Source of the DNA: Candidatus Atabeyarchaeum deiterrae
GTDB lineage: Archaea; Asgardarchaeota; Atabeyarchaeia; Atabeyarchaeales; Atabeyarchaeaceae
Direction of reading: 5' to 3'
Length of the DNA: 64,000 bases
Assembly (NCBI GenBank): GCA_037310415.1
Contig: CP147780.1
Span: 2,016,001 to 2,080,000, forward strand
In this document: one piece after another, positions 1 through 28,981 of the stretch
Layout: every line of letters begins with the position of its first letter
How positions within the stretch are numbered: position 1 is the stretch's first letter
Program-made: the position numbers and the translations under genes
The notes under the pieces: generated by a model
Databases searched by the model: none
What the model was told of the DNA's origin: nothing
Seen by the model: only the letters and a program-made list of their open reading frames with translations

Positions 1-1
1 G

Positions 2-823
2 AGTGGCGTTGAAAGTACTAGGTGGGCTTCGACTGGCCGGGGTGATCCTGGGCGGTATATGGATGCAAAAGTTGACCAAGTGTCTGACATTGCGACGGCG
101 TTATCTTTCAGCGCGACGAATGGAACGGTGAGCTTAGTAGTATTTCAGGTGCGCGTTGATGTGTCTGCGCGTGGAAAAACTTCGGGTTCCACGTTGACGG
201 CTTCAAGTGGCTGGTTGACTTTCACCGGTAATCAAGTGTCATACATGGCGTATACTACGAAACTCGGTGCACTCTATTATCCTTCAAGTGTATCAGCGGT
301 CTATCCTTCAGGTGGTGGTAGTGGAACTCTCGCAAATGTGCAAAGCGACGACGGGACTTACTACTCTGTAGCTCTCGGCGATGTTGACACGTATACAATT
401 GTGCAGATGGGTTACACGGGGCTTCCAACTCCTTCAACTCAATATCCATACTTCCGCGTCGAGATTGAAGTCAAGGCAAACTTACATAGTATCAATGGTG
501 TGCAGTTGCGAGTGATGAGTGGTGAAACGATCTTAGCGAGTTGGGATCATGGTTCCATAGGTGTCGGTGGTACGTGGATAGGAACTTTCGGGGATAATGC
601 GTATTCTGGGAGCTATGTAAGCGGTGGTGCTATGACTCTGCGGGTGTATGCAGGGAGTCAGCAGTTTGCCGGTAACGCGGCTTACGACTACATGAGAATC
701 AGAATCATAGAAGCGGTGTCTTGGCTTGATACTTTGATGAGCTCTGCGTCCGCGAAGGTGCTCGTAATGCTTGCTATCGTTGCGTTGGTCGTCCTGTTGT
801 TTGTAAGGAGGCGTAAGGCGTGA
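2..823 (+). CDS. 5'-partial putative virion spike/adhesin with C-terminal membrane anchor
   Basis: Frame is open from base 2 (SGVESTRW...), so the gene starts upstream of the window. The body is Ser/Thr/Gly/Tyr-rich and beta-like, ending in a TM helix + RRRKA. Confidence 0.55.
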   Translation, partial: SGVESTRWASTGRGDPGRYMDAKVDQVSDIATALSFSATNGTVSLVVFQVRVDVSARGKTSGSTLTASSGWLTFTGNQVSYMAYTTKLGALYYPSSVSAVYPSGGGSGTLANVQSDDGTYYSVALGDVDTYTIVQMGYTGLPTPSTQYPYFRVEIEVKANLHSINGVQLRVMSGETILASWDHGSIGVGGTWIGTFGDNAYSGSYVSGGAMTLRVYAGSQQFAGNAAYDYMRIRIIEAVSWLDTLMSSASAKVLVMLAIVALVVLLFVRRRKA

Positions 824-1104
824 AGCGAATAGACTTGTATCTGCTGGTCATGTGGCTGCTCATGAATCTCGCTGTCTACGTTCTCTGGTTTTACGTTCCC
901 TATTCTCCTGCTGATCCTGGGGGTTCGGGTGGCTCGTCGGGAGGTTCATCAGGTGGCTCGTCGGGTGGATCTTCGGGTGGTGGCAGCGGGGGATTCTTCG
1001 GCTTCAAATATGTCTCTTGGTCTGGTCTGCTTGGGTTTGGCGTTGGATTGTCTCTTGTTGCGTTCATAGTGGGGGTGTTCGTATGGGCATTGATGCGGCG
1101 TTAA
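820..1104 (+). CDS. Small viral membrane protein, TM-(GGSS)n linker-TM
   Basis: Two hydrophobic segments separated by GGSGGSSGGSSGGSSGGSSGGGSGG; GTGA overlap with the upstream gene. Confidence 0.7.
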   Translation: MKRIDLYLLVMWLLMNLAVYVLWFYVPYSPADPGGSGGSSGGSSGGSSGGSSGGGSGGFFGFKYVSWSGLLGFGVGLSLVAFIVGVFVWALMRR

Positions 1105-1292
1105 TCATGGCAGTCATGGGTATAGTCGGTGGACTGAGCTTGATCTTCAAGTGGCGGCTTGTCATGCGGGTAATAAAGTGGGTCGTAATCTTGTTCGTTG
1201 CTGGCTTCGTTGTCTCGATGGTTCCACAAGTTCACGATGCACTTGTCAACTTCTATACGGGAATCTTCGGCGGGTTACTGGGAGGCGTATAA
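1083..1292 (+). CDS. Small hydrophobic viral protein (candidate coat/membrane protein)
   Basis: ATG at 1083 (MGIDAALIMAV...), 69 aa, two hydrophobic stretches and an amphipathic tail; tightly packed in the operon. Confidence 0.6.
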   Translation: MGIDAALIMAVMGIVGGLSLIFKWRLVMRVIKWVVILFVAGFVVSMVPQVHDALVNFYTGIFGGLLGGV

Positions 1293-1295
1293 CTA

Positions 1296-2030
1296 TTGGA
1301 CTACATTCAAGTTGTGTTGCTGGTCAACATAGCTTTCATTGCAGTCGTGTTCCTTGGACGAAAAGTTATTCATCGAAAAAGCAAAGGCGGGACTTCCAGG
1401 GAGCTTCCTGGGACTTCCAAGGTGAAGCGTTCGTTGAAGCGTGCAATATCTAAGAACTTAGGCGTCTTGTTTCTCTGCGTTATCTTGGGCTTCGTTGTCT
1501 TGATAGCCATTCCTCCATCGACATCTGCGGATAAACCACATGACTACGTTGGTGGGAGTCCGATCTATCCTTACGCATGCGTAGGTGGCTCTGCTTCTGG
1601 TGTTCATCCTAACACGGCGGCGGCTGTCGGAAGTCTGTCTTACGTTCAAGAGATAGATGGGCAAGGTTTCAGTATTCGCAGTATCGGCTATGGTCATGTG
1701 CGGTTCAAGTTCAACGTGACGGGAGTCTCCGTTACGGATGACACGTATATTCTTGTGCGCTTGAAGCTGACTCAGAGAGATCAGGGGTCTTACATTGTAA
1801 CTTGGAGTGATTGGAGTGGTGTTGACTTGTCTATTAGTGGTGCTGTGTATTGGCATGGTAGCCCGGACGGTGTGTATACGACTGTGAAAATCTCGGCATT
1901 CAGTCAATTCGTTGCAAACAATGAAGTGATACTCGACTTCGAGGGACTCAACGTTTGGGGTGGTATACTACTTGGCTTAGTTGGGTTATACTGGACTGTT
2001 TCATTCGATCAGATCGTGTTGATGGGGTGA
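1296..2030 (+). CDS. Viral membrane protein with extracellular beta-rich domain
   Basis: Two N-terminal TM segments flanking a basic loop, then a beta-rich domain. Confidence 0.65.
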   Translation: MDYIQVVLLVNIAFIAVVFLGRKVIHRKSKGGTSRELPGTSKVKRSLKRAISKNLGVLFLCVILGFVVLIAIPPSTSADKPHDYVGGSPIYPYACVGGSASGVHPNTAAAVGSLSYVQEIDGQGFSIRSIGYGHVRFKFNVTGVSVTDDTYILVRLKLTQRDQGSYIVTWSDWSGVDLSISGAVYWHGSPDGVYTTVKISAFSQFVANNEVILDFEGLNVWGGILLGLVGLYWTVSFDQIVLMG

Positions 2031-2034
2031 TCTT

Positions 2035-2493
2035 GTGGTAGTATGGCTAATCATTGCTCTGCTGGCTGGTCTGGGTGCGATGTTCGCTATACCGTCGTTC
2101 CTGGGACAGATAGGGGGCGGAATAGGAACGGGTATTATTGTGATAGCTCAGGGCATCGTTTACGTCATGACGCTTGCGATGATTCCAATCATGGTTCTCG
2201 GGCCAATCTACATAATGAGTCGGAGTAAGAAAATAAAACAGAGTTACTATGTCATCGGTGTCATCTACGGGCTTATCTTGCTCTTTGCTGCGACGACATT
2301 CGGATTCTTGACTACTGCAATAAATGGACTCAGCCGGATAACGGGGTCTTGGTGGGACACTTCGGTAAACGCGGTGTTCGTTGTTCTTCTGATGGTATTC
2401 GAGGGTATCGCTTTGTGCTTGATGGACTTTGAGATCATAAACTACGTGAGACGACAACGCTTTAGGCGACGACAGCACTCTTGGAGGTTCTAA
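2035..2493 (+). CDS. Multi-pass viral membrane protein
   Basis: About 4 hydrophobic segments and a basic C-terminal tail; 4-nt gaps to both neighbours. Confidence 0.65.
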   Translation: MVVWLIIALLAGLGAMFAIPSFLGQIGGGIGTGIIVIAQGIVYVMTLAMIPIMVLGPIYIMSRSKKIKQSYYVIGVIYGLILLFAATTFGFLTTAINGLSRITGSWWDTSVNAVFVVLLMVFEGIALCLMDFEIINYVRRQRFRRRQHSWRF

Positions 2494-2497
2494 CATC

Positions 2498-3046
2498 GTG
2501 GTGCGCAAGGGTGACCTGTTCTATCCTCTTTTTTCCGTGATTGCCGTATCCTGCGGGGCATACGTGATGTTGCAGGGTAGTTCATCTGCTGCTGCTGTCA
2601 TGGTGTTGTTCATCGTCTGTGCAGTGACTATGCCTTTCATGCGCCGATTTGTCAAAGATAGGCGTGTAGGTTGCGCTGGTCGCTATGATAACTGGTATCT
2701 GGCTCTTACTGCGGTTCCGATTGCTTTGAGGTTTGGCATGTTTGGCTTGACGTTAAGTTGGGCCGAAGACTTTACAGGGTTCACGATGCTTATTGTCGTC
2801 GCTTGGAGTGAGGAAACTTTTAGGGCTGGCGTTGCTGGTGCACTTATGAAAGCAGGCTTAGGGCTCGGCACGAGTATAGTTGTTGCTAACGGTCCTTGGC
2901 TGGTGTTGCACTTTGCGTTACGGGCATTCGTTCTATCATACGCTTGGTGGCTGCTGGTCGCCGGGGCATGCCTTAGCGCGATCCTGTGGAAGTGTGGAGT
3001 AGGAAAAGCGGTGTTGGGACACATCGTAGTAAACTTGACTGCATAA
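2498..3046 (+). CDS. CPBP (CAAX/Abi) family intramembrane metalloprotease
   Basis: Multi-TM protein with EExxxR (WSEETFRAG), a mid His (LVLHF) and C-terminal HxxxN (GHIVVN). Confidence 0.75.
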   Translation: MVRKGDLFYPLFSVIAVSCGAYVMLQGSSSAAAVMVLFIVCAVTMPFMRRFVKDRRVGCAGRYDNWYLALTAVPIALRFGMFGLTLSWAEDFTGFTMLIVVAWSEETFRAGVAGALMKAGLGLGTSIVVANGPWLVLHFALRAFVLSYAWWLLVAGACLSAILWKCGVGKAVLGHIVVNLTA

Positions 3047-3057
3047 GTGGGCCACTC

Positions 3058-3092
3058 GTGTATACATACGGGTGGTCCTGAAATGTATACAC
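3058..3092. promoter_or_regulatory. Operator-like inverted pair GTGTATACAT-N15-ATGTATACAC
   Basis: Perfect 10-bp inverted repeat in the gap before gene 3118; the same architecture recurs at 5384-5418. Confidence 0.6.
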
Positions 3093-3117
3093 ACACGTCA
3101 GAGAGGTAAGAGGAAAC

Positions 3118-3771
3118 ATGAAATTCTATCAGGGAGTGTCGGTTATTGGAATTGTGGCCGGACTAATCGGGCTGATTGGCTTCGTAGCTCTGCCTTCGGC
3201 GGTTGATGCTGTTGTGATAGTGATGGCCGGCTTGATTGGAATAGATGTCGGGCTGGCCGTGATGTATCACTTCCTGCCAAAACATGAGGCTTGGAAGATC
3301 AGTATCGACTTGGAGAAAAAACTCGTAAGTCCTGAATTATGTTTGGTTAAAGAGCAGGCGATAGACGATAGGACCAGGGTGTTTCGGGCGAAGGACGGGA
3401 CGCCTGTGTATGTTCTCGACAAGAGTGGTGCGTTGACTAATGTGCATAGAGTCGGTGAACTGGAATACTTAGCTGACGTTGGGGTGATGGGGGACATCAT
3501 CAAGTCAAACGAGAAACTTGTCGTTCGTTCGATGTCCTTGGAAAAATACGCTGGAGTCTATGCTCGGTTGTGTGCCTCGAGGGTTGCCGACTTCGTAGTT
3601 AGCAACTTGAGGCCTGCGGAGAGTTCCGACAATATTCGCGGTATGCTAAAAGGGTTTGAAGGAAAACTAACAGAGGTGTTCGAGGGTGTCCGACGAGAGC
3701 TTGGAGAGGGAGAATCAGATACAGCGAAGGGTGGTAAACAAAATACTTCCCAGAAAGTTTCTAAGTCCTGA
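3118..3771 (+). CDS. Viral protein with two N-terminal TM helices and a cytoplasmic domain
   Basis: SD-like GAGG upstream; hydrophobic N-terminus; first gene of the ATPase operon. Confidence 0.7.
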   Translation: MKFYQGVSVIGIVAGLIGLIGFVALPSAVDAVVIVMAGLIGIDVGLAVMYHFLPKHEAWKISIDLEKKLVSPELCLVKEQAIDDRTRVFRAKDGTPVYVLDKSGALTNVHRVGELEYLADVGVMGDIIKSNEKLVVRSMSLEKYAGVYARLCASRVADFVVSNLRPAESSDNIRGMLKGFEGKLTEVFEGVRRELGEGESDTAKGGKQNTSQKVSKS

Positions 3772-3772
3772 G

Positions 3773-3964
3773 ATGCCGTTGATCGATGACTTGATTGATG
3801 GCGCGAAGGAGGAAACTAAAGCGGTGGTATATGAGGCTGTAGGCTTCAACTTCATGATCCGTAATCCTGGTGATGCCTGGAGGGCTATATCGTGTCTTGG
3901 TTCAGAACAGAGGCGGACTTGGTCGCAACAGTTAGAGAGCTTAAGGAAACGCGCCAAACAGTAA
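3773..3964 (+). CDS. Small viral hypothetical protein
   Basis: ATG at 3773, 1 nt after the upstream stop (MPLIDDLIDG...). Confidence 0.5.
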   Translation: MPLIDDLIDGAKEETKAVVYEAVGFNFMIRNPGDAWRAISCLGSEQRRTWSQQLESLRKRAKQ

Positions 3965-4461
3965 ACTGCTCTGTTACTGGTCCAAGGGGCTTCTATAAGA
4001 CTCTTGCGTTGCAGACTATATACTACCATGTTAAAGACAAATTCTCTGCTTGTATGTGTTACACTTTGCTGGATCTTCCTCAAGAGCCTGTGGACGTTCT
4101 CTTGTTGGACGATTTCTCTAGTAAGTTCTATAAGAGGCGGTTCGGGACCGTTCCTAACATTGAGTTCATGACTGCACTTAATGAAGTGCGTGAGCTGACG
4201 GCCATGATTGTAACAACTTGCCCGGATCACGGAGACCTGGACTTGGATATGCGGGGTTTCTTCCAGGATAACAGCATGCTGTTTGTTGGTTGCTTCGAGC
4301 TTGATGATTCGATATACATATTAAGTCCGGCGCCAATAGAGTTCTATGAATCTGAGAAGAAGCGTGAGGTTGAAGCAAAGAGGCGGTTGTGGCGTGAGCG
4401 CGTTGAGAGAATTAAAGCGGTTGCAGTCGCAAAAGACCGAGGCTTTAGTGAAAGAACCTGA
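3892..4461 (+). CDS. P-loop ATPase, pI/Zot-like (FtsK-HerA superfamily) morphogenesis/packaging candidate
   Basis: GGAGG 8 nt before the GTG start. Variant Walker A VTGPRGFYKT, Walker B VLLLDDF, then an R...IVTTCP..DLDLDMR segment typical of pI-like ATPases. Confidence 0.65.
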   Translation: MSWFRTEADLVATVRELKETRQTVNCSVTGPRGFYKTLALQTIYYHVKDKFSACMCYTLLDLPQEPVDVLLLDDFSSKFYKRRFGTVPNIEFMTALNEVRELTAMIVTTCPDHGDLDLDMRGFFQDNSMLFVGCFELDDSIYILSPAPIEFYESEKKREVEAKRRLWRERVERIKAVAVAKDRGFSERT

Positions 4462-4606
4462 TTGTTACAACTTGGGCTTGTATGATGGTGACAAGACTGT
4501 ATGCTACTGCATCTGCGTCTGGCGGTTCGCCTGCTATACTAAGTCATTTGGTCAAACTCAATTCACTAAGAAGCAGGAGCAAGCCGTCGACGGAGCCATG
4601 AAGTAG
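4448..4606 (+). CDS. Small Cys-rich viral protein
   Basis: GTG start overlaps the ATPase end; C...CxCxC...C pattern. Confidence 0.45.
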   Translation: MKEPDCYNLGLYDGDKTVCYCICVWRFACYTKSFGQTQFTKKQEQAVDGAMK

Positions 4607-4981
4607 ATTGGTTTCACAAATTGATGGTTTCCACAAGTGGCTACTTTTGGGTGCAAAGAGTAGGGGCAAATAGGTTCAATATGGTATCTTGTAGCGTGTT
4701 TTAGGTCTGGGATCCCTGGACCCTGGACGTCTGCAGCTGTGCAGGGTGGCCATATATATCTGCTGTGTTTCGTTGGAATCCGTAGTATTCTAATATCGCT
4801 TGTAGACAAGTGTTTGAAAATCGTTTGTTTATGCGGTTCTCTACGTTTCTGACGTCGAAGGGCTGACTGTTTAGTGTGGTTTCCTGTGAGGGTGCTAAAA
4901 TCACGTCCGATGTCAAATAAGTCGTTTTCGTGATAAAAAATAGGAGTTAGTGATTTTGAGTAGTGTCTGATAGGGGTTCAT

Positions 4982-5272
4982 CTAAGTAGTCCTTGGCTTC
5001 TTCGTAACGTCTAAGTTTGGTAGGATCATAGTGTGGTCCCTGCATGCGCAGAAGATTCCGACGTTATTCCAGGTCGCTTTTTGCTTATTCCGGAATATCC
5101 GGGACTTCTCTGGGTATTCGTAGGTGACTGTCCTGGTGTATGCTGTTCGTCTTGTTGCTGGGCTTGGAGGGTATCCGTGTGCCTTGATACATTCCTTGCA
5201 TGCTTGCGGTAAGTCCTTGAGTCTTGGGTCTTTCTCATCTTTGATGTAAATGTATTTGCTTTCATTTGTCAA
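4982..5272 (-). CDS. Viral hypothetical protein, possible Zn-binding
   Basis: CKEC and CACRDH motifs; lies downstream of the TGTATACA cluster. Confidence 0.5.
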   Translation of the reverse strand: MTNESKYIYIKDEKDPRLKDLPQACKECIKAHGYPPSPATRRTAYTRTVTYEYPEKSRIFRNKQKATWNNVGIFCACRDHTMILPNLDVTKKPRTT

Positions 5273-5300
5273 GCTTGACAGCCTTCTTGTGAGCTGGTTA

Positions 5301-5469
5301 TGTATACATGGCGACGTCTGCGCATATAGCCTTTTCTCCGTCTCTTGAGACTAGTCGTGGTGTATACATTATTGGATCTCGGAGTGTATACATTTCGGGT
5401 CCTGCTTTATGTATACACGCACGGCCATGGCGTTAGACTTAACTCTCCGATGGACTAGTAGTGTATACA
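5301..5469. repeat. Five copies of palindrome TGTATACA (5301, 5361, 5385, 5410, 5462) between divergent genes
   Basis: Read directly from the sequence. Copies at 5384 and 5461 extend to GTGTATACATTT(CG/AC)GGTCC. Confidence 0.85.
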
Positions 5470-5502
5470 TTTACGGTCCGAAAGTATAGGAGGTGGATCT
5501 TT

Positions 5503-5643
5503 GTGAGTTTGGAAAAACAAGTAGAGCAGCTCAGCAGGAGGCTACGGTGGCTGACGGCTGTCCTTGTTGTTGACACGGCCGGTATCGTTATCCTGCTCTT
5601 TATGATGGCCAACACACTTGCTTGGCTCATGAAGTTGGTATAA
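5503..5643 (+). CDS. Small coiled-coil + TM viral protein
   Basis: Strong SD AGGAGGTG before the GTG at 5503; MSLEKQVEQLSRRLRW followed by a hydrophobic tail. Confidence 0.55.
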   Translation: MSLEKQVEQLSRRLRWLTAVLVVDTAGIVILLFMMANTLAWLMKLV

Positions 5644-5706
5644 AACGTGTGTGCTGACTTGCATAGTATCCTTTATTGCGGTCGGCGGTATCCTATGACG
5701 GATTTC

Positions 5707-5819
5707 GTGGAAATTGGGGGACCACCCGCTGCGCGGCGGGTGGTGGAGTCGTCCAATTTTCACTTTGTCCGCCGACCGCCGTATCAGAGGGGGTCTTATG
5801 ACCCCCGCCGTGAGGCGGG
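5707..5819. other. Hairpin cluster, candidate rolling-circle origin/packaging signal
   Basis: ACCACCCGC..GCGGGTGGT stem (5721-5744) inside an outer GTGGAAATTGG/CCAATTTTCAC stem; GGGGGTC-TTAT-GACCCCC (5789-5806); CCCGCC-GTGA-GGCGGG (5804-5819). Lies adjacent to the rep 3' end. Confidence 0.6.
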
Positions 5820-5898
5820 ATTAATAGATCGTCACTATGAATGACTGTAAAATGGTTACATCTAGCACCTTGCTTTCTTGTGGAAAAAAAGGAGGGTG

Positions 5899-6906
5899 TT
5901 ATGTGGGTTCTTCTTCGGTTGGCTCTTGTAAAATGAGTCTTGAAATCTCTTGTAGGTAGTAAGTTGGTGCGTATTTGCCTTTGTGGACTTTCTTAAGGAG
6001 TTTGCGTCGAACGAGACTTCTTGTCAGGTTTTGGAGACTTTTCGTCGCTTTCCATGATGTAGCTTCTAATAAGCCCTTGAGAACGGCCTGATCGAGTTTC
6101 AAAAATGCTGCCCATGCTGCGAGGCGTTCGTCAAAGCGTAAACTGTGCGTTGCCATGGTGGGGAACCACGGAATATTGAATCGTTCTAGGACACGGTTAG
6201 CTATTGCTATCGTCGTCCTTATATCGTCTATGTCGTTAGAAAGGTCGCTTGCGTCTCGTCCATTGAGTGTTATCTCTTGCCTTAAGATGGATGGGTTCTT
6301 TTGGTAGAATTTGATTTGGGATTTCCCTTGTCCCCATGCGTTAAGGTAGAATGTGCCTGTCTCGTTGTGAAACTTCATGAAAGATCTTGCGGTAGCCATG
6401 AATAGGAGAGGCTGGTAGACGTCGCAAACAGTCGCGTTGATTTTCTCGCCGACTACTTCGAGCTGGTGTATGTTGACTATTGTATGTGGTGGTTTCTCCT
6501 TGAACACCTTTTCATAAGCTTTCTCATAGTGGGTCTGTGCTACTGCTATTGTCCGTTTCAGGAGTTCGTGAAATTCAAGGGGGGTAAACTGTGTGTTGAC
6601 AGGGCAAACATTATCGTCGAAACTGGCGTCCGGTGGCATCAAGCTATGTTCCTCCATAAAGAGGCGCATGAGGTTGGCCCATACATACATAGTCCTGCTT
6701 TGTAGGCCGAGGACCTCCTTTAGCGTGTTGTGGTCGTTGTCATTTGTCCAGCCCCATTCTAAGCCCCACTCGTTACCAGGTTTAATCCTGACGGCTCTGT
6801 GCTTGTAGAGGTTGTACGCTTCTCGGTCGAACTCGAACTTGCCGTGTTCTTCGACACTTATAGAGAAATAGACCTTGTCATAGCCAAATCTGACGTCTGC
6901 GCTCAT
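5899..6906 (-). CDS. Rolling-circle replication initiator, Rep_trans/phage CRI-like, with a probable C-terminal wHTH
   Basis: N-terminal GYDKVYF and core TGTFYLN...KSQIKFYQK...ILRQEITL (T-x-Y / Y-x-K / R-x-E pattern of non-HUH Reps). ATG at 6906 overlaps the HNH stop (ATGA). Confidence 0.7.
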   Translation of the reverse strand: MSADVRFGYDKVYFSISVEEHGKFEFDREAYNLYKHRAVRIKPGNEWGLEWGWTNDNDHNTLKEVLGLQSRTMYVWANLMRLFMEEHSLMPPDASFDDNVCPVNTQFTPLEFHELLKRTIAVAQTHYEKAYEKVFKEKPPHTIVNIHQLEVVGEKINATVCDVYQPLLFMATARSFMKFHNETGTFYLNAWGQGKSQIKFYQKNPSILRQEITLNGRDASDLSNDIDDIRTTIAIANRVLERFNIPWFPTMATHSLRFDERLAAWAAFLKLDQAVLKGLLEATSWKATKSLQNLTRSLVRRKLLKKVHKGKYAPTYYLQEISRLILQEPTEEEPT

Positions 6907-7184
6907 GATATGTTGTGTGCCTCCTTGTGGTGTTTGATGCATAGGAGTTTGTAGCTGTCGGGGTTGTTCCGGATATCGTAATAGCGTTCCTTTCTACCTC
7001 TACCTGCTCGGTGGTTGTGCTTGGGGATACCGAGGACATTCGTCTCTGCGATATGGTGAAACTCGAGCTGTCGTTTCGATGTGCAACGCTGGAAGTTGTC
7101 GAGGATCTTCTCGCACCGTCCGCCTCTTGCCATCCGTAGCTCCTTCATCTTGCCCTTAATCCACTCGTTGGTCTTGTTTGTCAT
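6903..7184 (-). CDS. HNH endonuclease-like protein
   Basis: GGRCE...C....LEFHHI ... YKLLCIKHHKEAH. Confidence 0.75.
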   Translation of the reverse strand: MTNKTNEWIKGKMKELRMARGGRCEKILDNFQRCTSKRQLEFHHIAETNVLGIPKHNHRAGRGRKERYYDIRNNPDSYKLLCIKHHKEAHNIS

Positions 7185-7305
7185 CGTAATTCTGCTCCCA
7201 TGGGTTGTTTGTCGGTAGTCTTGGACGAGGTCGTTTTCGCTTGGGGAAAGGTGTTCCCCAGACCTGTCTCCAGAGTGCATCTATTTCGTCTTCCTTGTTC
7301 GTCAT
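7156..7305 (-). CDS. Small viral hypothetical protein
   Basis: ATG at 7305 preceded by GAGGGAGGG; coupled to the upstream ORF. Confidence 0.45.
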   Translation of the reverse strand: MTNKEDEIDALWRQVWGTPFPKRKRPRPRLPTNNPWEQNYDDKQDQRVD

Positions 7306-7478
7306 AGTTTCCCTCCCTCTAGGGGGATACCTCTGATTCTCCTGGGTGCGAACTCGTAGCAATGTGGGATCTCTGATATGTTGACGCCTGGGGGTCCGTC
7401 TCTGGTGCAAATAAAGAGGGTTACGCCGGCAAAGCGTCTCTCGAAGGATTCGCAGTGTCGGCAAAATTCTTCTCTCAT
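7302..7478 (-). CDS. 58-aa Cys-rich (Zn-finger-like) viral protein, absent from the ORF track
   Basis: Hand translation MREEFCRHCESF...FICT...PHCYEF...GGKL*, with ATGA overlaps at both ends. Confidence 0.6.
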   Translation of the reverse strand: MREEFCRHCESFERRFAGVTLFICTRDGPPGVNISEIPHCYEFAPRRIRGIPLEGGKL

Positions 7479-7684
7479 CGCGGTATCACCTTGAGCATGG
7501 CGATGAGCTTCGGTAGTTTTCTAAGGGCTTCTCTGTCTACTGGTATGTATTCGAGCTGTGCGGCTAGGTGAGAAAATAGGGATCTCCAGTTGTCGAAAGT
7601 CTTTTTGCAGACGCATTGTATTAAGAGGTACGGCTTAGTGCTTGGTTTGGCGTTTGATCTTCTCTTGCTCTCTGTTGTATTCAT
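7475..7684 (-). CDS. C2H2-like Zn-finger viral protein
   Basis: CVCKKTFDNWRSLFSHL (CxC...F.....L..H). Confidence 0.55.
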   Translation of the reverse strand: MNTTESKRRSNAKPSTKPYLLIQCVCKKTFDNWRSLFSHLAAQLEYIPVDREALRKLPKLIAMLKVIPR

Positions 7685-7795
7685 CTCTTGTATCACAGAT
7701 GTCGGTATATGGACTTGCGCAGTAGGCTGAACCATCGAGTCTACACACCCCCGTTGCCTGTCGGTACCACTCACATAGGTCGTCTTTGGCTTTGG

Positions 7796-8143
7796 TTAGA
7801 AGTCGGCTGCCTTGTCTAGTTGCTTGCGTGACTGGTCCCTCCTTTCCTGCTCGAACTTGACATGTGCGCGTATGAAGTCCTTGTTTTGGATGCCTGTTTT
7901 GATGAGTAGGGCGAACTGGCTGTATGACATGGTTAGTTTGCCTTTACCTGCGCCGAGGAAGATGTTGCCGGAAGACTTTGGGTTGTAGACGTATTTGCCT
8001 GTGTGTTCGTCTTTGGTGGTTCCAGGGTTCATTCCTAAGAAGAGTCCGTCGAGGTTGGCCGTTATTCGTTGAGACAAGTCTATTTCCTTGTTCTCAACTT
8101 TCGTGCCGTTCTTAGCGTTCGGATCAGTACTATTACTGCTCAT
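7796..8143 (-). CDS. First gene of the viral replication operon, hypothetical (possible ssDNA-binding)
   Basis: SD GGAGG upstream, 115 aa. Function is inferred from position only. Confidence 0.55.
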   Translation of the reverse strand: MSSNSTDPNAKNGTKVENKEIDLSQRITANLDGLFLGMNPGTTKDEHTGKYVYNPKSSGNIFLGAGKGKLTMSYSQFALLIKTGIQNKDFIRAHVKFEQERRDQSRKQLDKAADF

Positions 8144-8165
8144 GCTTTGTATAGACCTCCGTCTA

Positions 8166-8193
8166 TTTGCATATAAGTCGGCTTATGTGAATG
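8166..8193. other. dif-like Xer recombination site A: TTTGCATATAA-GTCGGC-TTATGTGAATG
   Basis: 11-6-11 layout with inner ATAA/TTAT, as in E. coli dif (GGTGCGCATAA-TGTATA-TTATGTTAAAT); sits exactly at the provirus/island junction. Confidence 0.75.
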
Positions 8194-8347: not shown

Positions 8348-9406
8348 TCAGGATCTCTTCGTCAGCACTGCCACGTAACCATGCTTTGGATTTCGCTTTT
8401 TTTCAACAATAAATGACCATTCTCTCTGCTTTGAATATAGCTTCGCATCTTCCAACGCCTTGGACACAAGCCTTGCAAGCACAACGTTGTTGCCCCTGGC
8501 AAGTACATAGATCGCTTCGATGCCATCCTTCGAACACTGAGAAGCCTGTTTAATGTAACGCGTCGCATCAAAACCAGTCGACATGCGTGCTACCGGCATG
8601 AGGTTCAAGCTAATCACCCTGCCCTTGAGCTTGAGTTGAACCTCCTCCTCTTTTTCTCTTTCTTCGAAGGTTTTAAGCAATAACACAAGATCACTCGTCT
8701 CTTTTTCTGAATGAATGTCGGACCGTGCAGGAGATAACTTTGCATCCAACTTCGATAGCTCCTGAAGTAGAACTCTTGTGAAGTGCCCTTGTTCGTCCAT
8801 TTTATCCATCGCGGGAACATAGTCTCTGATGAGCTGAGCTTTCTGTGCCTCAGGTTCCATGAACTCCTCGCTAAGGCAATCCAAAGCGTCAATATTCTCA
8901 TCGAGCATGAGCATTTTTCTTACTACCTCGAACGTTACAGACTTCATGACCGTCCTGTCTATAAACCTTCGCGATCGCTGCAGCAAATCCTCCCTAACAT
9001 AGAATAATGCCGCCCTCGCAATGTTTCTTGATTCATTGTCACTGGGCTCTAGACAGACTATGATTTTCCCGTCCTTCAGAAATGAGTCTCTGTCTATTGG
9101 TTTTGCCCACTTGATCTTCAGTCCATGTGGAAGGAGAAGAACTCCTTCCTTGTTGATCTTTCTGGAGGCGGAGCCTATTGTGCTCTCCAGGCGTGTTTGC
9201 ACTGCTTTTTTCTCAAACCAGAAATTGACGCCTCGAAGCAACTTATAGACAGAAGCCATAAGATTTCTATCGGGATCAGCAATGACAATGACAAGAATCG
9301 CTGAAATGAAAGCCGGAAGCAGACCAATAGTGCCAAGATACCAGACGAAAAACGCGAAACAAGCTACGATAATGACCGCTGCTATGATCGCTTTCCTAAC
9401 AGCCAT
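8348..9406 (-). CDS. Hypothetical protein with N-terminal TM hairpin and large cytoplasmic domain
   Basis: Likely ATG at 9406 (MAVRKAIIAA...), overlapping the upstream small gene. Confidence 0.7.
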   Translation of the reverse strand: MAVRKAIIAAVIIVACFAFFVWYLGTIGLLPAFISAILVIVIADPDRNLMASVYKLLRGVNFWFEKKAVQTRLESTIGSASRKINKEGVLLLPHGLKIKWAKPIDRDSFLKDGKIIVCLEPSDNESRNIARAALFYVREDLLQRSRRFIDRTVMKSVTFEVVRKMLMLDENIDALDCLSEEFMEPEAQKAQLIRDYVPAMDKMDEQGHFTRVLLQELSKLDAKLSPARSDIHSEKETSDLVLLLKTFEEREKEEEVQLKLKGRVISLNLMPVARMSTGFDATRYIKQASQCSKDGIEAIYVLARGNNVVLARLVSKALEDAKLYSKQREWSFIVEKKRNPKHGYVAVLTKRS

Positions 9407-9641
9407 GTATAGACTCTCCCATAGTGAGCCTTTCCATTTCGAAGATGCACTCAGCCTCAGTACAGCACACGAGGATATCACTTGGAGAAGGAATAATGAA
9501 ACCAATGTTGACCACAGAGACTTTGCAGCCACAAACTGAACACCTCAGCTTGCCTTTTCTCAGCTTGCCGAACAGTCCTAATTCTCTTAGCAAGCCCTCC
9601 AGTCTTTTTCTATGAACTGCAAGTATCTCAGCTTTGTCCAT
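9396..9641 (-). CDS. Small Zn-binding protein
   Basis: ATG at 9641 (MDKAEILAVH...); CSVCG...CC...EC. Confidence 0.7.
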   Translation of the reverse strand: MDKAEILAVHRKRLEGLLRELGLFGKLRKGKLRCSVCGCKVSVVNIGFIIPSPSDILVCCTEAECIFEMERLTMGESIHGC

Positions 9642-10105
9642 ATCCCCTACCCCGTCATTTAGGCTGAGATTAGGCAATAAAAACCTTGCCATCAGGCTGC
9701 GATCCCCGCAAACCGTACGATAGGGATATGCAACTGAACCAGTACCATACACCACTCGCTTATCCGCGTCGTGGCAGTCGTCATGCACTCGTCACCAGAA
9801 GAAGACATGATTCTGGTTTTGATGAAATGATACTTCGCTCCAAGGAAGGATCTTTGCTGGTTCCAGAGGCGATGTCGCTTTTATGGGCTAGACGCAGCGA
9901 CGAGAAGAAAGCTTAAAACTGAGTTGAGGGGTTGTTAAATGAAGTCGGAGCCACCTCGAAATCGCGCTCCGAGCACAGAAGGTAGATTTGAACAAAAACT
10001 GTGGAAAGTGGCATCGACAGCAGCAGGGTACTTTGAATTGCGGGAATAGTCCCACAGATCTTGCCAGACTCTCTCCAGAGGATCTGACTGAGTATCAGTT
10101 CCTCT

Positions 10106-11086
10106 CTAGGACATTCTTTCTGTTATCATGTCCGATAGCCTCTTAACGTCCTTGGGGATTTTCTTGATATTCCTGACGATGAGTCGCTTGACAAACCAGT
10201 TGGGCGCAGGTAGTCCTTTAGACATGAAAAGTAAGGCGATCAGCCTCTTTGGATCCGTTTCCTTCGTCGAATCGTAAAATGCGCGAACCTCTCCTTCGCT
10301 CACCACAAGTGTTCGAGCTAAGGCCTTCGGATCAGCCAGGTAACCATCGATGTTTCTTCTTGACCACACAAAGATCTCCTCGTCTCTTGCACCAGCATTC
10401 TTCAGTTCCGTTATCCTGCTCTCTCTATCAGTGTCAGGATCGGCGACGAAAACCAATGGAAAAGAAGCTTCGAGCGCTCTGAGTTGCCGTATGCACGCTT
10501 TCAATTCATTTATTCCGTTCGCTCCCCAAATGAGAAGGTTGCCCATGTCCAAGCCAGTTTTTGCTAGAAATTCCTTCAAAACCCAGAAATCTTCTTTACC
10601 TTCCACTATGATCCTGCACTTCTGAGCTACGAGTACCTCTTCCCATTCTGTCTCTTCATCGGAAGGTTCGTAAAGCTTGCCAATCTGTTTCGCCACATGC
10701 TTTAATCCGTTGATAAAGTAAGGTCTGCAATTGTCCATTTCCTCAGCCTCTATATAACACCAGCTGCATGCGTACTCATTAAGCAGGAACTTCGTGTGCA
10801 TGTCTTGGTCACAGTTACTACACTTGCCATAGTACTCACATATGAAAAATGTCTCAGTTCCCATTTCTCTTTCGTCTTCTTCGACAACCTCCGCTCCATC
10901 AAGGGAGAGTATGAGGCTAGGTTGATTACAGTTAATGCACCGAACCGATGCAAGCACACCTTTGACCTCATCCTCAATTGGGCCATCATATCCGTATCCA
11001 ACTCCCACACCAGACTTTGAGTTAAGTCTTAATGCCGCCCCCTTGAGTATCAAATAAACAACGTCTTTCTCTGCCTTTTTCATCAT
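10106..11086 (-). CDS. Zn-ribbon + OLD-like TOPRIM domain protein
   Basis: CINC and CSNC in the N-terminal half; IIVEGKED and VADPD (DxD) TOPRIM motifs in the C-terminal half. Confidence 0.7.
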   Translation of the reverse strand: MMKKAEKDVVYLILKGAALRLNSKSGVGVGYGYDGPIEDEVKGVLASVRCINCNQPSLILSLDGAEVVEEDEREMGTETFFICEYYGKCSNCDQDMHTKFLLNEYACSWCYIEAEEMDNCRPYFINGLKHVAKQIGKLYEPSDEETEWEEVLVAQKCRIIVEGKEDFWVLKEFLAKTGLDMGNLLIWGANGINELKACIRQLRALEASFPLVFVADPDTDRESRITELKNAGARDEEIFVWSRRNIDGYLADPKALARTLVVSEGEVRAFYDSTKETDPKRLIALLFMSKGLPAPNWFVKRLIVRNIKKIPKDVKRLSDMITERMS

Positions 11087-11149
11087 ACCTCACTTCCGAC
11101 ATACGCCATACGTCTTGCCATGCTCGTTACTACTGACAATCTCAAGCTC

Positions 11150-12436
11150 CTACTTCGCTGCTGATGAAAACATCTTAGGTAGAGATTTCTGCTCGATGAT
11201 AGTTCTGATCTCATCCACAAACCTTCTGCATTCGGTCAGAAGATCACCACTCGTTTTCCTAGTCAAGTCTATGACCCTGCAAGCAAGTATGACATCGTGT
11301 TTAAGAGACTTCTCGTAGCTGATTTGCATTTCGCTCATAGGATAAACAAGAACACCGATCGGAACCTTCTTCACCGGCATCATACAATAAGTAAAAATCT
11401 GTCTAGCATCTTGGGTGCTGGGATCAGCTTGTTCTTCATCATCATCTTGCAAGCGTTTATATTTCGCATCAAGAACTAGAACATCTATCCCATCTTTTGA
11501 TATCTTTACGTCGGGCTCTTGGATCATATCTCCTTCAAGATCAAGAGCGTACGGCGGATTACCTTCTTTGGCCGCCCTAACGCCGTAGTCTCGCAGGTTC
11601 TCCCTCAAGCAACAAAACACAAAGTCCTGAAACAATTGATCCATGTTAATGAGAAACGAAGAATAGGGAATCTCACCGATCTCCTCAAGATTGAGGGTGA
11701 CGTTGTCGATTATTAGCCGGCTTAGATTCACAATCGGCCTATAGTGTTCGTTTAGCCTATTGTATTGCACGTGAGGGAAATCCTTGCTATCGATTACTAC
11801 GAAGGACGCGGACTCAAAGAAATAAAAGATTTCCTTTGCCTTGTTTCTAAGCTCACTGTTTTGAAGAGGCATCCGCGATATGTAGCTGAGTGCGTATTTG
11901 ATTATCCGGTTCTCGACCGTGTCAGATGTGAAGTCTGAGAAGGAGCAGAAAATCCTGTGTCTCAAGACTGAATTTCTTCTAATGTCCTCTTGAATTAACA
12001 CTCTGCCCGAGACATGATTGAGATTCTCATCATTTTCAACATACGCTTTGGAAATGCCCCTCCTTGCAAGATGTCCGACATCTTCGAGGAATCTCTCAAT
12101 TATCAACTCGAAGATCTCTTGCTCTCTCATGTACTCCGATTCGTTCTTCCCGAAATCGGGTATGCCGTTAGTGTACAAAAGCATAAAAAAGAAGCTCAGA
12201 TTGGGAACCTTTGGCCTAATGATAATGCGATGATGAGGGAGAGCGATATTCCCAACGTATTGTCTTGCTTTCAATAAACACTTGCCTTCTGGAGTCACGT
12301 AGGCTTCTATTTTGTTCTTAAATCGGTTGGCGAGAATCTCGAATTCATCTTTGCTTAACTCAACGATCTCGGGTGGTCCTCGCTCTTTCAATTCCACGAC
12401 GAATGGTGCCTTTTCCACAGCAGTTGTTCGGAGCAT
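11150..12436 (-). CDS. mcrC: McrC-family PD-(D/E)xK nuclease
   Basis: YVG.I, ENRIIK, FLINMDQLFQDFV, EPD...LDAKYK, DARQIFTY; directly downstream of mcrB. Confidence 0.9.
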   Translation of the reverse strand: MLRTTAVEKAPFVVELKERGPPEIVELSKDEFEILANRFKNKIEAYVTPEGKCLLKARQYVGNIALPHHRIIIRPKVPNLSFFFMLLYTNGIPDFGKNESEYMREQEIFELIIERFLEDVGHLARRGISKAYVENDENLNHVSGRVLIQEDIRRNSVLRHRIFCSFSDFTSDTVENRIIKYALSYISRMPLQNSELRNKAKEIFYFFESASFVVIDSKDFPHVQYNRLNEHYRPIVNLSRLIIDNVTLNLEEIGEIPYSSFLINMDQLFQDFVFCCLRENLRDYGVRAAKEGNPPYALDLEGDMIQEPDVKISKDGIDVLVLDAKYKRLQDDDEEQADPSTQDARQIFTYCMMPVKKVPIGVLVYPMSEMQISYEKSLKHDVILACRVIDLTRKTSGDLLTECRRFVDEIRTIIEQKSLPKMFSSAAK

Positions 12437-12442
12437 ATTCTA

Positions 12443-14650
12443 CTAACCAGCGTTCGGCTCCTTGGCGATTGCATGAATGGCAGTGAGCACTTCATCAAAG
12501 ATCTTCTGAAAGCTATTGACAGTATCCTCGGCGTCAAAGTAATACTCTTCGAGCAAGGGCTTTATGTTGTGCGTCCACGTGTCTTGGAGTTTCCTTTTGT
12601 CAAGCTTCTCCAGCATGAAATAGCTGTGGCCGATTTGGAAGTGCTTTCCTAGTTTGGGATCTCCCTTAATCTTCTGGTTCAGCTTCTCGAAGAGATCCAC
12701 TACTATATTCTTATCAATGAGTGAGGGGTTCTTTTCAAGCCACGCTGACAATACCTGTCGGTCAGGCATGAATTCCTTGAAAGCAAACCTTCTGCGCAGG
12801 GCATAATCAACCAAAGCGATAGAGCGGTCAGCACTGTTCATTGTTCCGATGACATAAAGATTGCTAGGCAGAAAGAAATACTCATGAGAATAGGGCAATA
12901 ACACTCTGTTCCTTTCTCCACGATATTCGAGGCAATATATTAGCTCCCCGAAGATCTTCGCAAGATTTCCCCTGTTTATTTCATCTATAACGATTACGAA
13001 TTTTCGATTTGGATTTCTTATCGCCTCGCTGCAAACACTCTTCAATATCCCGTCACAGACCTCGTAAGAGATCTGTTTTTCGGAAGTGATACTTGGTCTG
13101 ATTCCCTCCACGAAGTCCTCATAACAGTAACTCGGATGAAACTGAACCAGTTCTGTTCTTCCTCCATCTCGTGCAAAATACCGTGCAAACTCGGTTGCAA
13201 CAAGGGTTTTACCAGTGCCGGGCGGACCGTAGAGAATAAGTTGCTTCTTCTCCTCGAGTAGGCGCTCAATTTGAACAAGGAAATCCTTCGACAGCATGGT
13301 TTCGTCTGAAAGCTGCTCAAGGGTAGTTGTGGCCGCCGCCCCAGCCTCAGTAGCTTGGGTTGACTCTCCAACAATCAACGAATACACTGGATAGAGTTGG
13401 CTGAATGTCTTGGTCACCAACTCTGTGATTCCTGGACCCGCAGAAATAGCGTCATCCTTGCTGAGAAACCTCCCTATGTGTATGTGAGTGTCTGTATCGG
13501 CTAAGTGATTAATGAAGTTGTCCATATCCTGGGGAAGTAGCGCTGACGGATCTGCCTTGAGGGTGTATCCTCCATGCAGCTCAATCGTGTCTTCAACAAG
13601 ATGTGCCACCAACTTCTGGAAGGCATCTCTATTGTTTTGTATGTTTTCTTTTACGATTTTCATTCTTGCCTCTGAAGCCTTTCCATCTATCCATATGTCG
13701 ATGCTCAGCTTATGTGAATTCACAACATTGATGCCGACCTGAAATTGAACCCCTTGTTGTGCTCTCTCGAATTTTGGATGCGCTAACCCTAGCCACATGT
13801 GATGTCTATATGGAGGATTCTTTTCGCCTCGCTTAGGCTGCTGATTGGGTCTTGCGGAGTATGCCTTGAAGTTGTCAAACTTGCTGTCCAGCTTGGACTT
13901 TATGACATTTAAGAGTATTTTGAACCTTTCACTGAGATAAACCGCATCATCTTTCTTTCCGGTGCAAGAATCAAAGTCTTTTTCTTCGAAGGCAAAATCG
14001 GCAGTCTTAGTCTTGACTGGAACTTCTGTCCTTGGCAGAAATCCTTCTCTTCCAGTGAGATTTTCAAACTCATCAATGAACCATATGAAGTGATCAACGC
14101 GATCTAGATCTGGGAAGCCATAGGCTTTCTTAATAACATTTTCAAACTCGGTGTACTTCTTGACCTGATCGCCAAAAGACTCTGAATCAAACTGGAGTTG
14201 TACTCCAAGCCGTTCACTGAGATTGTGTGTCCTCTTGTTGACAAGAGCGACACCTGCGTCAGGTATGATGGCACATACAAGCTCAGACAATCTGCTGCGA
14301 CCCAATCCCTTCAAGCGATACTTCGGATCTGAACAAGTTGCATCGATTCGGGTGAACAGGTCTCCCTCGCCAAAGAACAGAAACTTGAAGGTGCCGCGAA
14401 TTCTTGAGATATCGTTTTCCTTCGTGAGTTCTTCGCCAAACCTTGTACCTACCCCCCATAGTCTTGCGAACACGTTGTTCACGTCTTCTTTAGACAATGT
14501 GCTGACTGTCTTCTGATTAACGATATCTCTGAACCATTCTTTACGCTTGTTTCTTTCCTCAATATCTTGGGAAAGCTTTGGCCAATTCTTGAATTCAGAG
14601 AAATAGAGATCAAGAGCCTTTCTTTGTTGCTCATTAAGCTCCATAGACAT
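12443..14650 (-). CDS. mcrB: McrB-family AAA+ GTPase with long N-terminal recognition region
   Basis: GPPGTGKT, VQFHPSYCYEDFVEG, IDEINRGN, GTMNSADRSIALVDYALRRRF, IGHSYF. Confidence 0.92.
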   Translation of the reverse strand: MSMELNEQQRKALDLYFSEFKNWPKLSQDIEERNKRKEWFRDIVNQKTVSTLSKEDVNNVFARLWGVGTRFGEELTKENDISRIRGTFKFLFFGEGDLFTRIDATCSDPKYRLKGLGRSRLSELVCAIIPDAGVALVNKRTHNLSERLGVQLQFDSESFGDQVKKYTEFENVIKKAYGFPDLDRVDHFIWFIDEFENLTGREGFLPRTEVPVKTKTADFAFEEKDFDSCTGKKDDAVYLSERFKILLNVIKSKLDSKFDNFKAYSARPNQQPKRGEKNPPYRHHMWLGLAHPKFERAQQGVQFQVGINVVNSHKLSIDIWIDGKASEARMKIVKENIQNNRDAFQKLVAHLVEDTIELHGGYTLKADPSALLPQDMDNFINHLADTDTHIHIGRFLSKDDAISAGPGITELVTKTFSQLYPVYSLIVGESTQATEAGAAATTTLEQLSDETMLSKDFLVQIERLLEEKKQLILYGPPGTGKTLVATEFARYFARDGGRTELVQFHPSYCYEDFVEGIRPSITSEKQISYEVCDGILKSVCSEAIRNPNRKFVIVIDEINRGNLAKIFGELIYCLEYRGERNRVLLPYSHEYFFLPSNLYVIGTMNSADRSIALVDYALRRRFAFKEFMPDRQVLSAWLEKNPSLIDKNIVVDLFEKLNQKIKGDPKLGKHFQIGHSYFMLEKLDKRKLQDTWTHNIKPLLEEYYFDAEDTVNSFQKIFDEVLTAIHAIAKEPNAG

Positions 14651-14737
14651 TCAACCTCACAGTAACCAACAAGACGATCGGTGGCGGCATTAGGAAGAAG
14701 CAATGAAGGATCGGGTCACACTTTGGATAATACTCGG

Positions 14738-23651: not shown

Positions 23652-23679
23652 ATTGCACATAAGATGTATTATGTGCAGT
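23652..23679. other. dif-like Xer site B: ATTGCACATAA-GATGTA-TTATGTGCAGT
   Basis: 11-6-11 site with arms 10/11 symmetric, 11 nt upstream of the recombinase start; left and right arms are 9/11 and 8/11 identical to site A. Confidence 0.85.
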
Positions 23680-27528: not shown

Positions 27529-27622
27529 ACGCTCAAAGCCAAGCCCATTTAGCTCCGTAACCTTGTATACCTATGATTATTTAAAGTGAAACTGTTCATT
27601 AAGGCGTCACCGGCACCAAGTT

Positions 27623-28933: not shown

Positions 28934-28981
28934 AATGCCTATCCCTTAGGAGAATGAATCCTTTAAGTCCTTTGTGGCGAG

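Follow-up and report, generated by a model that had tools for sequence, protein, structure and literature searches.

A 9.6-kb integrated element between dif-like repeats in an Asgard archaeal chromosome pairs a predicted Rep_trans-fold initiator with a spindle-virus-type ATPase

The 64,000-nucleotide window analyzed here comprises bases 2,016,001-2,080,000 of the single 2.76-Mb contig (CP147780.1) of the Asgard archaeon Candidatus Atabeyarchaeum deiterrae, and its left end holds most of an integrated element of 9,634 bp (genome positions 2014534-2024189, equal to L003 4534-14189). The element occupies window positions 1-8189, its left 1,466 bp preceding the window start. It is flanked by 22-nt imperfect direct repeats that are 91% identical and spaced 9,634 bp apart (the right repeat lies exactly at window 8168-8189 and the left begins at genome position 2014534), and both repeats have the architecture of dif sites, in which 11-bp inverted arms surround a 6-bp spacer (11-6-11). 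The genes are arranged in two convergent modules, as an initial annotation made from the letters alone had described: plus-strand genes run to 4461, and minus-strand genes run from 8143 down to 4982. That annotation had counted at least eight membrane proteins; by Kyte-Doolittle hydropathy the element has nine open reading frames (ORFs) with transmembrane (TM) segments, eight inside the window and a ninth just upstream. The plus strand carries eight consecutive TM ORFs (302, 394, 94, 69, 244, 152, 182 and 217 amino acids, aa) followed by a soluble 189-aa ATPase, and the minus strand carries ORFs of 115, 86-99, 125, 335/347 and 96 aa, with a 60-aa TM ORF between the modules. Apart from the ATPase, no element protein has a significant match in Pfam, PHROGs or NCBIfam. 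The principal features are listed below, in window coordinates unless marked L003.

L003 4531-4558, no strand: attL, the left dif-like site, with spacer CTCGGC
L003 4727-5635, plus strand: 302-aa TM protein with the layout of the 394-aa protein, directly before the 394-aa gene
2-823, plus strand: C-terminal 273 aa of the 394-aa protein (hydropathy), which starts at L003 5639
820-1104, plus strand: 94-aa protein with two hydrophobic helices, a Gly/Ser-rich linker between them and a basic end
1083-1292 (ORF from 1017), plus strand: 69-aa protein with two TM segments by hydropathy; called at 69 aa in Logan contigs
1296-2030, plus strand: 244-aa protein in which two N-terminal TM segments precede an ectodomain and a hydrophobic C-terminal segment; no family match
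2035-2493, plus strand: 152-aa protein with four TM segments by hydropathy
2498-3046, plus strand: 182-aa five-TM protein carrying EExxR, H and HxxxN motifs
3118-3771, plus strand: 217-aa protein whose soluble C-terminal part follows a TM region at the N-terminus
3892-4461, plus strand: P-loop NTPase of 189 aa without TM segments, from the fusellovirus B251 ('DnaA-like')/His1 ORF16 family (phrog_5484, hhalign)
5678-5819, no strand: GC-rich nested hairpin cluster directly downstream of rep
5899-6942, minus strand: Rep, 335/347 aa, with a predicted Rep_trans/TBP-fold catalytic domain and a MarR-like winged helix
7796-8143, minus strand: 115-aa family-conserved protein (o19) with homologues in six related contigs
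8165-8192, no strand: attR, the right dif-like site, an 11-bp arm, spacer GTCGGC and an 11-bp arm
22726-23640, minus strand: xerA-like tyrosine recombinase of the host, 304 aa, with Phage_integrase and Phage_int_SAM_1 domains

We regard it as highly probable that the element is real and discrete and that it is mobile by ancestry; it is integrated in a closed chromosome of Asgard type and carries a morphogenesis-type module of membrane proteins and an ATPase, in agreement with the initial annotation, which had proposed a rolling-circle virus of a probable Asgard host. Its genes are absent from sister genomes and have no paralogues elsewhere in the host genome, and neither the Rep protein nor a Rep profile found another Rep copy in 400 genomes of the phylum. 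The element is contiguous with identical flanks in every Logan contig examined (four runs from two studies), and the metagenomes containing the stretch come from wetland and freshwater sediment; these contigs, which are blind to rare forms, hold no joints for excision, circles or empty sites. To the left of the element lie a host gene for an SBP_bac_5-type surface protein and toxin-antitoxin genes, and to the right McrBC and a restriction system of type I; the 1,132-aa gene of the flank shows no conservation across the family. Among the findings named at the outset as able to overturn a viral interpretation was an upstream flank with a module for conjugation or of plasmid type; the flank, once retrieved, contains no conjugation or plasmid-partition module, but one further membrane-anchored protein gene followed by the left repeat. 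The initial annotation had suggested matching Asgard CRISPR spacers; the single CRISPR array of the host genome has no spacer matching the element or its relatives.

No ORF of the element has an integrase or recombinase domain in Pfam, PHROGs or NCBIfam. The xerA-like gene, which lies 14.5 kb from the element, encodes the sole Xer-type recombinase of the genome and the best of three tyrosine recombinases genome-wide, with orthologues in genomes G002 and G003. The latter, a closed genome of 2.81 Mb from a sister genus, has only one perfect dif-type site of the same kind, similarly placed in the chromosome; the spacer of that site is CTCGGC, its arms match those of the right copy, and the xerA orthologue is located 22.7 kb downstream of it. 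Because the element lacks an integrase, the sister genus has one such site and xerA is only 14.5 kb away, Xer-mediated integration is plausible, and we lean toward integration by host XerA at dif as the simplest reading of the flanks and the missing integrase. The GC skew of the genome is too irregular for placing the terminus.

The true start of Rep is likely Met13 (window 6906), where an ATGA overlaps the upstream stop codon. An HMMER scan of 1.84 billion representatives recovered 18 homologues of 25-35% identity, giving 19 members with the window Rep; a word-based comparison of Rep and the ATPase with 5.8 billion proteins returned nothing beyond the query proteins. The invariant positions of the Rep alignment (A1) are E162, E166, T197, Y199, K211, Y213, K215, R221 and E223, which include an invariant motif Q-x-K-x-Y-Q-K followed by R-x-E. 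The catalytic domain spans about residues 17-265, with TBP/Rep_trans-like structural matches over 14-265, and the winged helix 268-347. When an AlphaFold2 model built from A1 (pLDDT 85, pTM 0.81) was compared with the PDB by Foldseek, RepSTK1 (4CIJ) ranked first (E 1.9e-7), followed by RepDE (4CWE, 4CWC) with TBPs interleaved; an independent all-against-all comparison by VIA-align gave Z 9.6 for 4CIJ, 8.8-9.4 for TBPs and 8.2 for 4CWC, and matched residues 268-347 to MarR-type winged helices at Z 5-7. Among viral models the matches were Inoviridae G2P/Rep_trans-type proteins and giant-virus TBPs, and the ESM Atlas neighbors belong to Phage_CRI and Rep_trans clusters. Judged from these models, the protein is very probably a rolling-circle initiator of the Rep_trans fold. 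Y213 is invariant in K-x-Y-Q-K, as are E162, E166 and E223, in the order acid, acid, Tyr, acid; the active-site reading draws on this conservation rather than on a residue-level superposition.

The initial annotation had called the protein a non-HUH, Rep_trans-like Rep, which holds at the level of fold (4CIJ, from the model of pLDDT 85) and fails at the level of sequence family. PF02486 (Rep_trans) has no match at E <= 10 in the genome and matches none of the 19 family members at E <= 1; PF25227 likewise has no match at E <= 10, while the control, a Haloferax genome, was positive; and the sole exception is one relative that matches Phage_CRI (PF05144) at E 0.0017. The A1 profile does not align with ORF528 of PAV1, a Rep-Arvir protein (hhalign Prob 0.1), has only chance matches among PDB sequences, and finds no sequence match in M13 pII. 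Since fold and domain order match and PF25227, PF02486, PF05144 and the PAV1 profile do not, we treat Rep as a separate sequence clade within the Rep_trans/Rep-Arvir fold superfamily. Rep-Arvir (PF25227/DUF7845), which includes RepSNJ2 of the betapleolipovirus SNJ2 and proteins of PAV1 and pRT1, was described with the match pattern and domain order seen here, and its own tie to Rep_trans is likewise structural only (Wang et al., NAR 2026, PMC13107129); initiators of both groups occur in plasmids and viruses alike, and the SNJ2 origin hairpin lies directly downstream of rep (PMC13107129), the position of the hairpin cluster here. The element shares with Rep-Arvir an N-terminal catalytic domain of TBP fold followed by a MarR-like winged helix, a common match in BFVD (A0A345MNV4), a hairpin downstream of rep and residence in small archaeal elements; it differs in its shorter Rep (335-347 aa) without a third domain and with K-x-Y-Q-K in place of KHYYM. 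Toward Rep_trans (PF02486; RepD/RepDE, RepSTK1) and Phage_CRI (PF05144; gpII), the likeness consists of the best structural matches (4CIJ, 4CWC) and of an invariant Tyr, placed on the sheet by the model, whose invariant acidic neighbors follow the order known there, and the difference of a missing hidden Markov model match, the bacterial distribution of those families and their canonical motif III, YxxK.

The hairpin cluster downstream of rep folds as DNA at -46.3 kcal/mol (z -6.5), which none of 200 shuffles equaled, and is a candidate double-strand origin or Rep recognition site; Rfam has no match on the element, the hairpin cluster included.

The gene that ends the run of eight TM-protein genes encodes an ATPase with Walker A and Walker B motifs and no TM segment. 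All four family ATPases match phrog_5484 ('DnaA-like replication initiation protein'; best E 7.7e-13), and a tblastn search of 50,697 virus records found fusellovirus DnaA-like genes. In hhalign comparisons the ATPase aligns with its counterparts in fusellovirus SMF1 (Prob 98.1, E 7e-13), His1 (ORF16, 82.5) and PAV1 (ORF375, 46), well ahead of M13 pI (26.7) and pleolipovirus HRPV-1 VP8 (0.5). Pfam Zot is matched at E 0.0045 by two of the four family ATPases and not by the window copy, and the Atlas neighbor clusters of the ATPase carry Zot. Sequence comparison thus makes it a clear homologue of the TM-less ATPases of spindle-shaped viruses, pI/Zot-like only at the superfamily level; the original call of a pI/Zot-like ATPase was right about the P-loop NTPase and wrong about its relatives, which are fusellovirus and His1 ATPases rather than inovirus pI. 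Like fusellovirus B251 and His1 ORF16, the protein has a P-loop and no TM segment, and it differs from them in the shorter length of the family ATPases (163-191 versus 274-308 aa) and in a Gly-to-Tyr change in Walker A of the window copy; the remaining gene sets of those viruses are unrelated to the element by sequence. With a pLDDT of 47, the AlphaFold2 model of the ATPase was too poor to base a fold search on. A scan of IMG/VR, against which the initial annotation had suggested a gene-sharing network, returned no relatives for the ATPase alignment (A2) or for the 394-aa protein.

Relatives of the element were defined as contigs encoding Rep homologues, and terminal overlap was taken as the usual assembler signature of circular molecules. 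By this measure five contigs imply circles of 3.6-10 kb, which bears out the proposal of a family, free circular members being present among the Rep relatives:

L018: 5,875 bp, 55-bp terminal overlap
L019: 6,769 bp, 30-bp terminal overlap
L020: 6,557 bp, 30-bp terminal overlap
L026: 10,050 bp, 30-bp terminal overlap
L021: 3,709 bp, 127-bp terminal overlap, with a single TM protein

Iterative searches identified three genes common to the element and the 5.8-6.7 kb circles L018-L020: Rep, a small upstream gene and the ATPase. The small gene, homologous to that of the 115-aa protein, lies directly upstream of rep in six related contigs and encodes a product of 113-138 aa. In L018-L020, collinear runs of small and large TM proteins are followed by a short ORF and the ATPase, and make up half or more of each circle; the short ORF, mutually homologous in L018 and L019 and of 83-85 aa there, has the position that an uncertain 63-aa ORF (3773-3964) has in the element. 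The combination of a rolling-circle initiator, a spindle-virus-type ATPase and a membrane-protein run apparently marks an undescribed family of small circular replicons, no account of which turned up in the papers searched. The words rolling, Xer, pleomorphic and membrane protein are all absent from the main text of PMC11529989, whose 18 integrated elements are in Supplementary Table S1. Two further observations concern single circles. L026 has at 7378-7423 two palindromes side by side, each dif-like in architecture with a 6-bp spacer between 10-bp arms of GTTAAC type, which could be the attachment site of that element; and L020 carries at 4731-5285, as accessory cargo, an extra 184-aa gene whose product resembles DNA methyltransferase-type proteins at its N-terminus.

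Within the membrane-protein module, the 394-aa protein has an N-terminal TM segment, a beta-rich ectodomain, a C-terminal TM anchor and a basic tail, and is a candidate adhesin or spike despite having no family match; the 94-aa protein is a candidate small virion or membrane protein. The 182-aa protein resembles CPBP/Rce1-like proteases below threshold, though over the whole profile (PF02517, E 0.58, positions 8-92 of 93) and with motifs that fit, a sequence lead only toward an intramembrane protease. Terminase, portal, HK97 and jelly-roll proteins, none of which the initial annotation could recognize in the visible part, have no match in Pfam, PHROGs or NCBIfam. That annotation had also called for comparison with structural proteins of inoviruses, pleolipoviruses and spindle-shaped viruses, which connected the ATPase to fuselloviruses and His1 and yielded no capsid or coat match; with single-sequence hhalign and jackhmmer queries, a test of low power, the two-helix proteins of 69 and 94 aa reached Prob <= 4 against His1 VP21 and SMF1 VP1/VP3.

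The closest architecture is that of the wyrdviruses, compared here by published description and not by sequence. These spindle-shaped Asgard viruses with predicted non-lytic release (Medvedeva et al.; WyrdV1, 15.6 kb) encode an adhesin, capsid proteins of about 80 aa that contain two hydrophobic helices, an unannotatable gene block, Zn-finger proteins, a pI/B251-like ATPase without TM segments and, in some members, rolling-circle endonucleases (bioRxiv 10.1101/2021.07.29.453957). Shared with the element are an Asgard host, a small genome, large surface proteins beside small two-helix membrane proteins, an unannotatable gene run ending in a TM-less ATPase, several putative Zn-binding mini-proteins, a predicted release without lysis and, for some wyrdviruses, a rolling-circle endonuclease. 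The element differs from the wyrdviruses in that no His1/SSV1-type major capsid protein was detected (a low-power test), in its smaller size (9.6 kb, with relatives of 5.8-6.7 kb, versus 15.6 kb), in the predicted Rep_trans fold of its Rep, and in its integration at dif without an integrase. The view that the gene set matches no known family can therefore not be kept: the ATPase is homologous to the spindle-virus ATPase, the layout parallels wyrdviruses and Rep parallels Rep-Arvir. Pleolipoviridae are more distant, no protein of the element or its relatives matching HRPV-1 proteins in jackhmmer searches and VP8 reaching only Prob 0.5. With the bacterial integrative mobile elements exploiting Xer (IMEX; CTX-phi, VGJ-phi, TLC-phi), the element has in common the want of its own recombinase, two dif-like flanks, a host Xer gene and a location at the position of a related genome's single dif site; it differs in that the archaeal system has a single recombinase, XerA, whose use by the element is here a prediction.

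We favor, by a modest balance of probability, the interpretation that the element is an integrated copy of a small circular archaeal element that replicates as a rolling-circle episome, forms a non-lytic membrane-associated particle and integrates through XerA and dif. In the proposed mechanism, Rep would nick via Tyr213 at the hairpin cluster downstream of rep, with E162, E166 and E223 as candidate metal ligands, and the 115-aa partner protein may bind single-stranded DNA; the TGTATACA palindromes described below might serve as operator sites. The nine membrane proteins and the B251-type ATPase would assemble and release a spindle-shaped or pleomorphic particle without lysis, comparable to the proposal for wyrdviruses, and host XerA would integrate and excise the element at the chromosomal dif, as in bacterial IMEX phages.

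A number of observations weigh against this interpretation. No element protein matches a known capsid, spike or coat protein, and in single-sequence hhalign and jackhmmer comparisons with His1, a fusellovirus, HRPV-1, M13 and PAV1 the ATPase alone matches. The TM proteins of the circles are homologous to one another and not detectably to those of the element; therefore a conserved virion module is not demonstrated. The Rep of the window matches none of PF02486, PF05144 and PF25227 and has a Tyr motif YQK instead of the canonical YxxK, and a scan for the hairpin cluster in the relatives was unconvincing, so that the cluster is not clearly conserved. In the ATPase, Walker A reads GPRGFYKT, with Tyr at a conserved Gly, in place of the GPEGSGKT of the relatives; such a sequence may impair nucleotide binding, and the element copy may therefore be partly decayed. 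A search of the circular relatives for dif-like sites of this host's type came back empty, and one relative (L022) is integrated beside archaeal genes with a tyrosine integrase of its own; Xer use is therefore not demonstrable as a trait of the family.

The strongest rival is an integrative plasmid of non-viral nature, a Rep_trans-fold replicon with membrane-protein cargo and an accessory or replication ATPase that is transferred in vesicles or not at all and makes no virion; we consider it distinctly less likely than a virus that forms a membrane-associated particle. Such transfer has a precedent in the haloarchaeal plasmid pR1SE, which is reported to move in membrane vesicles. A plasmid would agree with the failure to recognize any structural protein, with membrane proteins that are not conserved across the family, and with a Rep relative, L021, of just 3.7 kb with one TM protein; the B251-family ATPase, moreover, carries the annotation 'DnaA-like replication initiation protein', and any part it has in virion assembly is putative. 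Both Rep_trans and Rep-Arvir initiators are found in plasmids too (PMC13107129). It counts against a plasmid that half or more of each 5.8-6.7 kb circle is a collinear TM run ending in the ATPase, a layout that is the same as that of the published morphogenetic modules of wyrdviruses, His1 and fuselloviruses, and that in the virus collection searched the ATPase relatives with an archaeal-virus context are exclusively core genes of spindle-shaped viruses; partition, conjugation and resistance genes were not found.

An archaeal inovirus-like filamentous virus, with a gpII-like Rep, a pI-like ATPase, pVIII-like coat proteins and Xer/dif integration in the manner of CTX-phi-type phages, appears improbable. 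The dif-type flanks without an integrase would suit it, as would the match of the Rep model to Inoviridae G2P, the Phage_CRI match of one family member (E 0.0017), and the weak Zot matches of two of four ATPases (E 0.0045) and of the Atlas neighbor clusters; but the ATPase has neither the TM anchor nor the C-terminal domain of pI and aligns with M13 pI at Prob 27 against 98 for the fusellovirus protein, the Rep profile has no sequence match to M13 pII, no element protein matches M13 pV or pVIII in sequence, and large membrane-anchored ectodomains and multi-pass TM proteins are atypical of inoviruses. Less probable still is that there is no single element, only a host surface-protein operon beside a remnant replicon with repeats that are duplicated dif sites of other origin: the region is variable, with other dif-like sites and islands, and the membrane proteins lack homologues in the related circles, but the repeats bracket both modules exactly, the related circles have an equal overall layout (TM run, ATPase, Rep module), TGTATACA is confined, within the 64 kb, to the membrane-gene module and the region between the modules, occurring in both, and the genes are absent from sister genomes.

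A bolder proposal, which we offer as doubtful, is that the element is the first recognized member of a new family-level group of archaeal viruses, joining a new Rep_trans-fold clade to a spindle-virus ATPase and using XerA/dif without an integrase. If so, it would be an archaeal counterpart of the CTX-phi-type IMEX phages and would point to a link, deep in function and possibly in evolution, that joins the filamentous phages of bacteria to the spindle-shaped viruses of archaea. Several implications are more immediate. Few Asgard mobile elements have a certain host, and the location of this one in a closed chromosome gives a direct host link. The Rep clade, with 19 members and several apparently complete circles, is seen by no Pfam, PHROG or NCBIfam model, and would extend the Rep_trans/Rep-Arvir story (2026) to a further group of archaeal replicons, while the joining of its replication module to a marker ATPase of spindle-shaped viruses bears on module recombination among archaeal viruses. 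Insertion between dif-type sites without an integrase offers a concrete test case for Xer exploitation in archaea, of which we know of no experimental demonstration, and a self-replicating, integrating element of 6-10 kb is a possible starting point for Asgard genetic tools.

The remaining genes and features of the element are small:

3059-3091, no strand: two TGTATACA palindromes between two membrane-protein genes
3773-3964, plus strand: 63-aa ORF, an uncertain gene that overlaps the ATPase start and is not called in Logan contigs
4982-5272, minus strand: 96-aa protein with Cys motifs (CxxC ... CxC), encoded at the end of the leftward module; no family match
5301-5469, no strand: cluster of five TGTATACA palindromes between the modules, a candidate operator or iteron array
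5461-5643, plus strand: 60-aa ORF with one TM segment, an uncertain gene called at 44-46 aa in Logan contigs
6903-7280, minus strand: 125-aa HNH-like protein with the motif C...C/HH/N/C..HH...H; PHROG HNH E 0.047
7475-7774, minus strand: 86-99-aa protein with a degenerate C2H2-like pattern (CxC...H); zf-C2H2 E 0.088

All seven copies of TGTATACA in the 64-kb window lie inside the element, where 0.47 would be expected by chance. The HNH gene of the initial annotation retains its motif pattern and a weak PHROG match (E 0.047), with no HNH match in Pfam or NCBIfam; the gene is one ORF in some metagenome contigs and is called as 49 + 93 aa in others (L005 9602-10004 versus L006 9627-10004), a difference that suggests a frameshift polymorphism in the population. 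The Zn-finger mini-genes fared similarly: Cys/His patterns are present in three small ORFs, with weak profile evidence (zf-C2H2 E 0.088). For the 115-aa protein, Atlas structural neighbors (PurA, Whirly and DUF3276, at TM scores of 0.35-0.45) are a modeling lead only toward a PUR/Whirly-like fold that binds single-stranded DNA, and its profile has no match among PDB sequences.

Further features lie in the surroundings of the element. The toxin-antitoxin cluster lies 2-7 kb upstream (L002 8848-14039) and consists of PIN/AbrB-like, HEPN/nucleotidyltransferase and DUF4258-like pairs, with a 733-aa PHP-like membrane protein within it; the dif neighborhood is accordingly regarded as a variable region. 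Between the element and xerA, window 8348-22226 is a defense island with a 394-aa two-TM protein of no assigned family, a DUF3226-like protein, McrB/McrC and a type I restriction-modification system (HsdR, HsdM, HsdS). A further site lies next to xerA:

23654-23677, no strand: near-perfect palindromic Xer-type site with spacer GATGTA, 14 bp upstream of the xerA start

This third site was considered as a second insertion boundary and dropped: since its spacer is unrelated and a half-site occupies the equivalent place upstream of xerA in G003 (position 2015980), it is read as associated with xerA and not as an insertion scar; autoregulation of XerA or another recombination site is suggested. Another pair of dif-like sites, outside the window and about 9 kb apart, is on the minus strand throughout, the spacers reading GTCGGC and CCCGGC; it encloses genes that include one for an 879-aa WD40-like protein, and this stretch (genome 1804742-1813727; L028 1742-10727) may be another Xer-site-flanked island. 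Finally, a Cas12f1-like/TnpB-type protein is encoded at window 26206-27528 (TNB domain, E 3.7e-13), and the GC content around it is 0.55 at 26000-30000, compared with about 0.47 in the surroundings.

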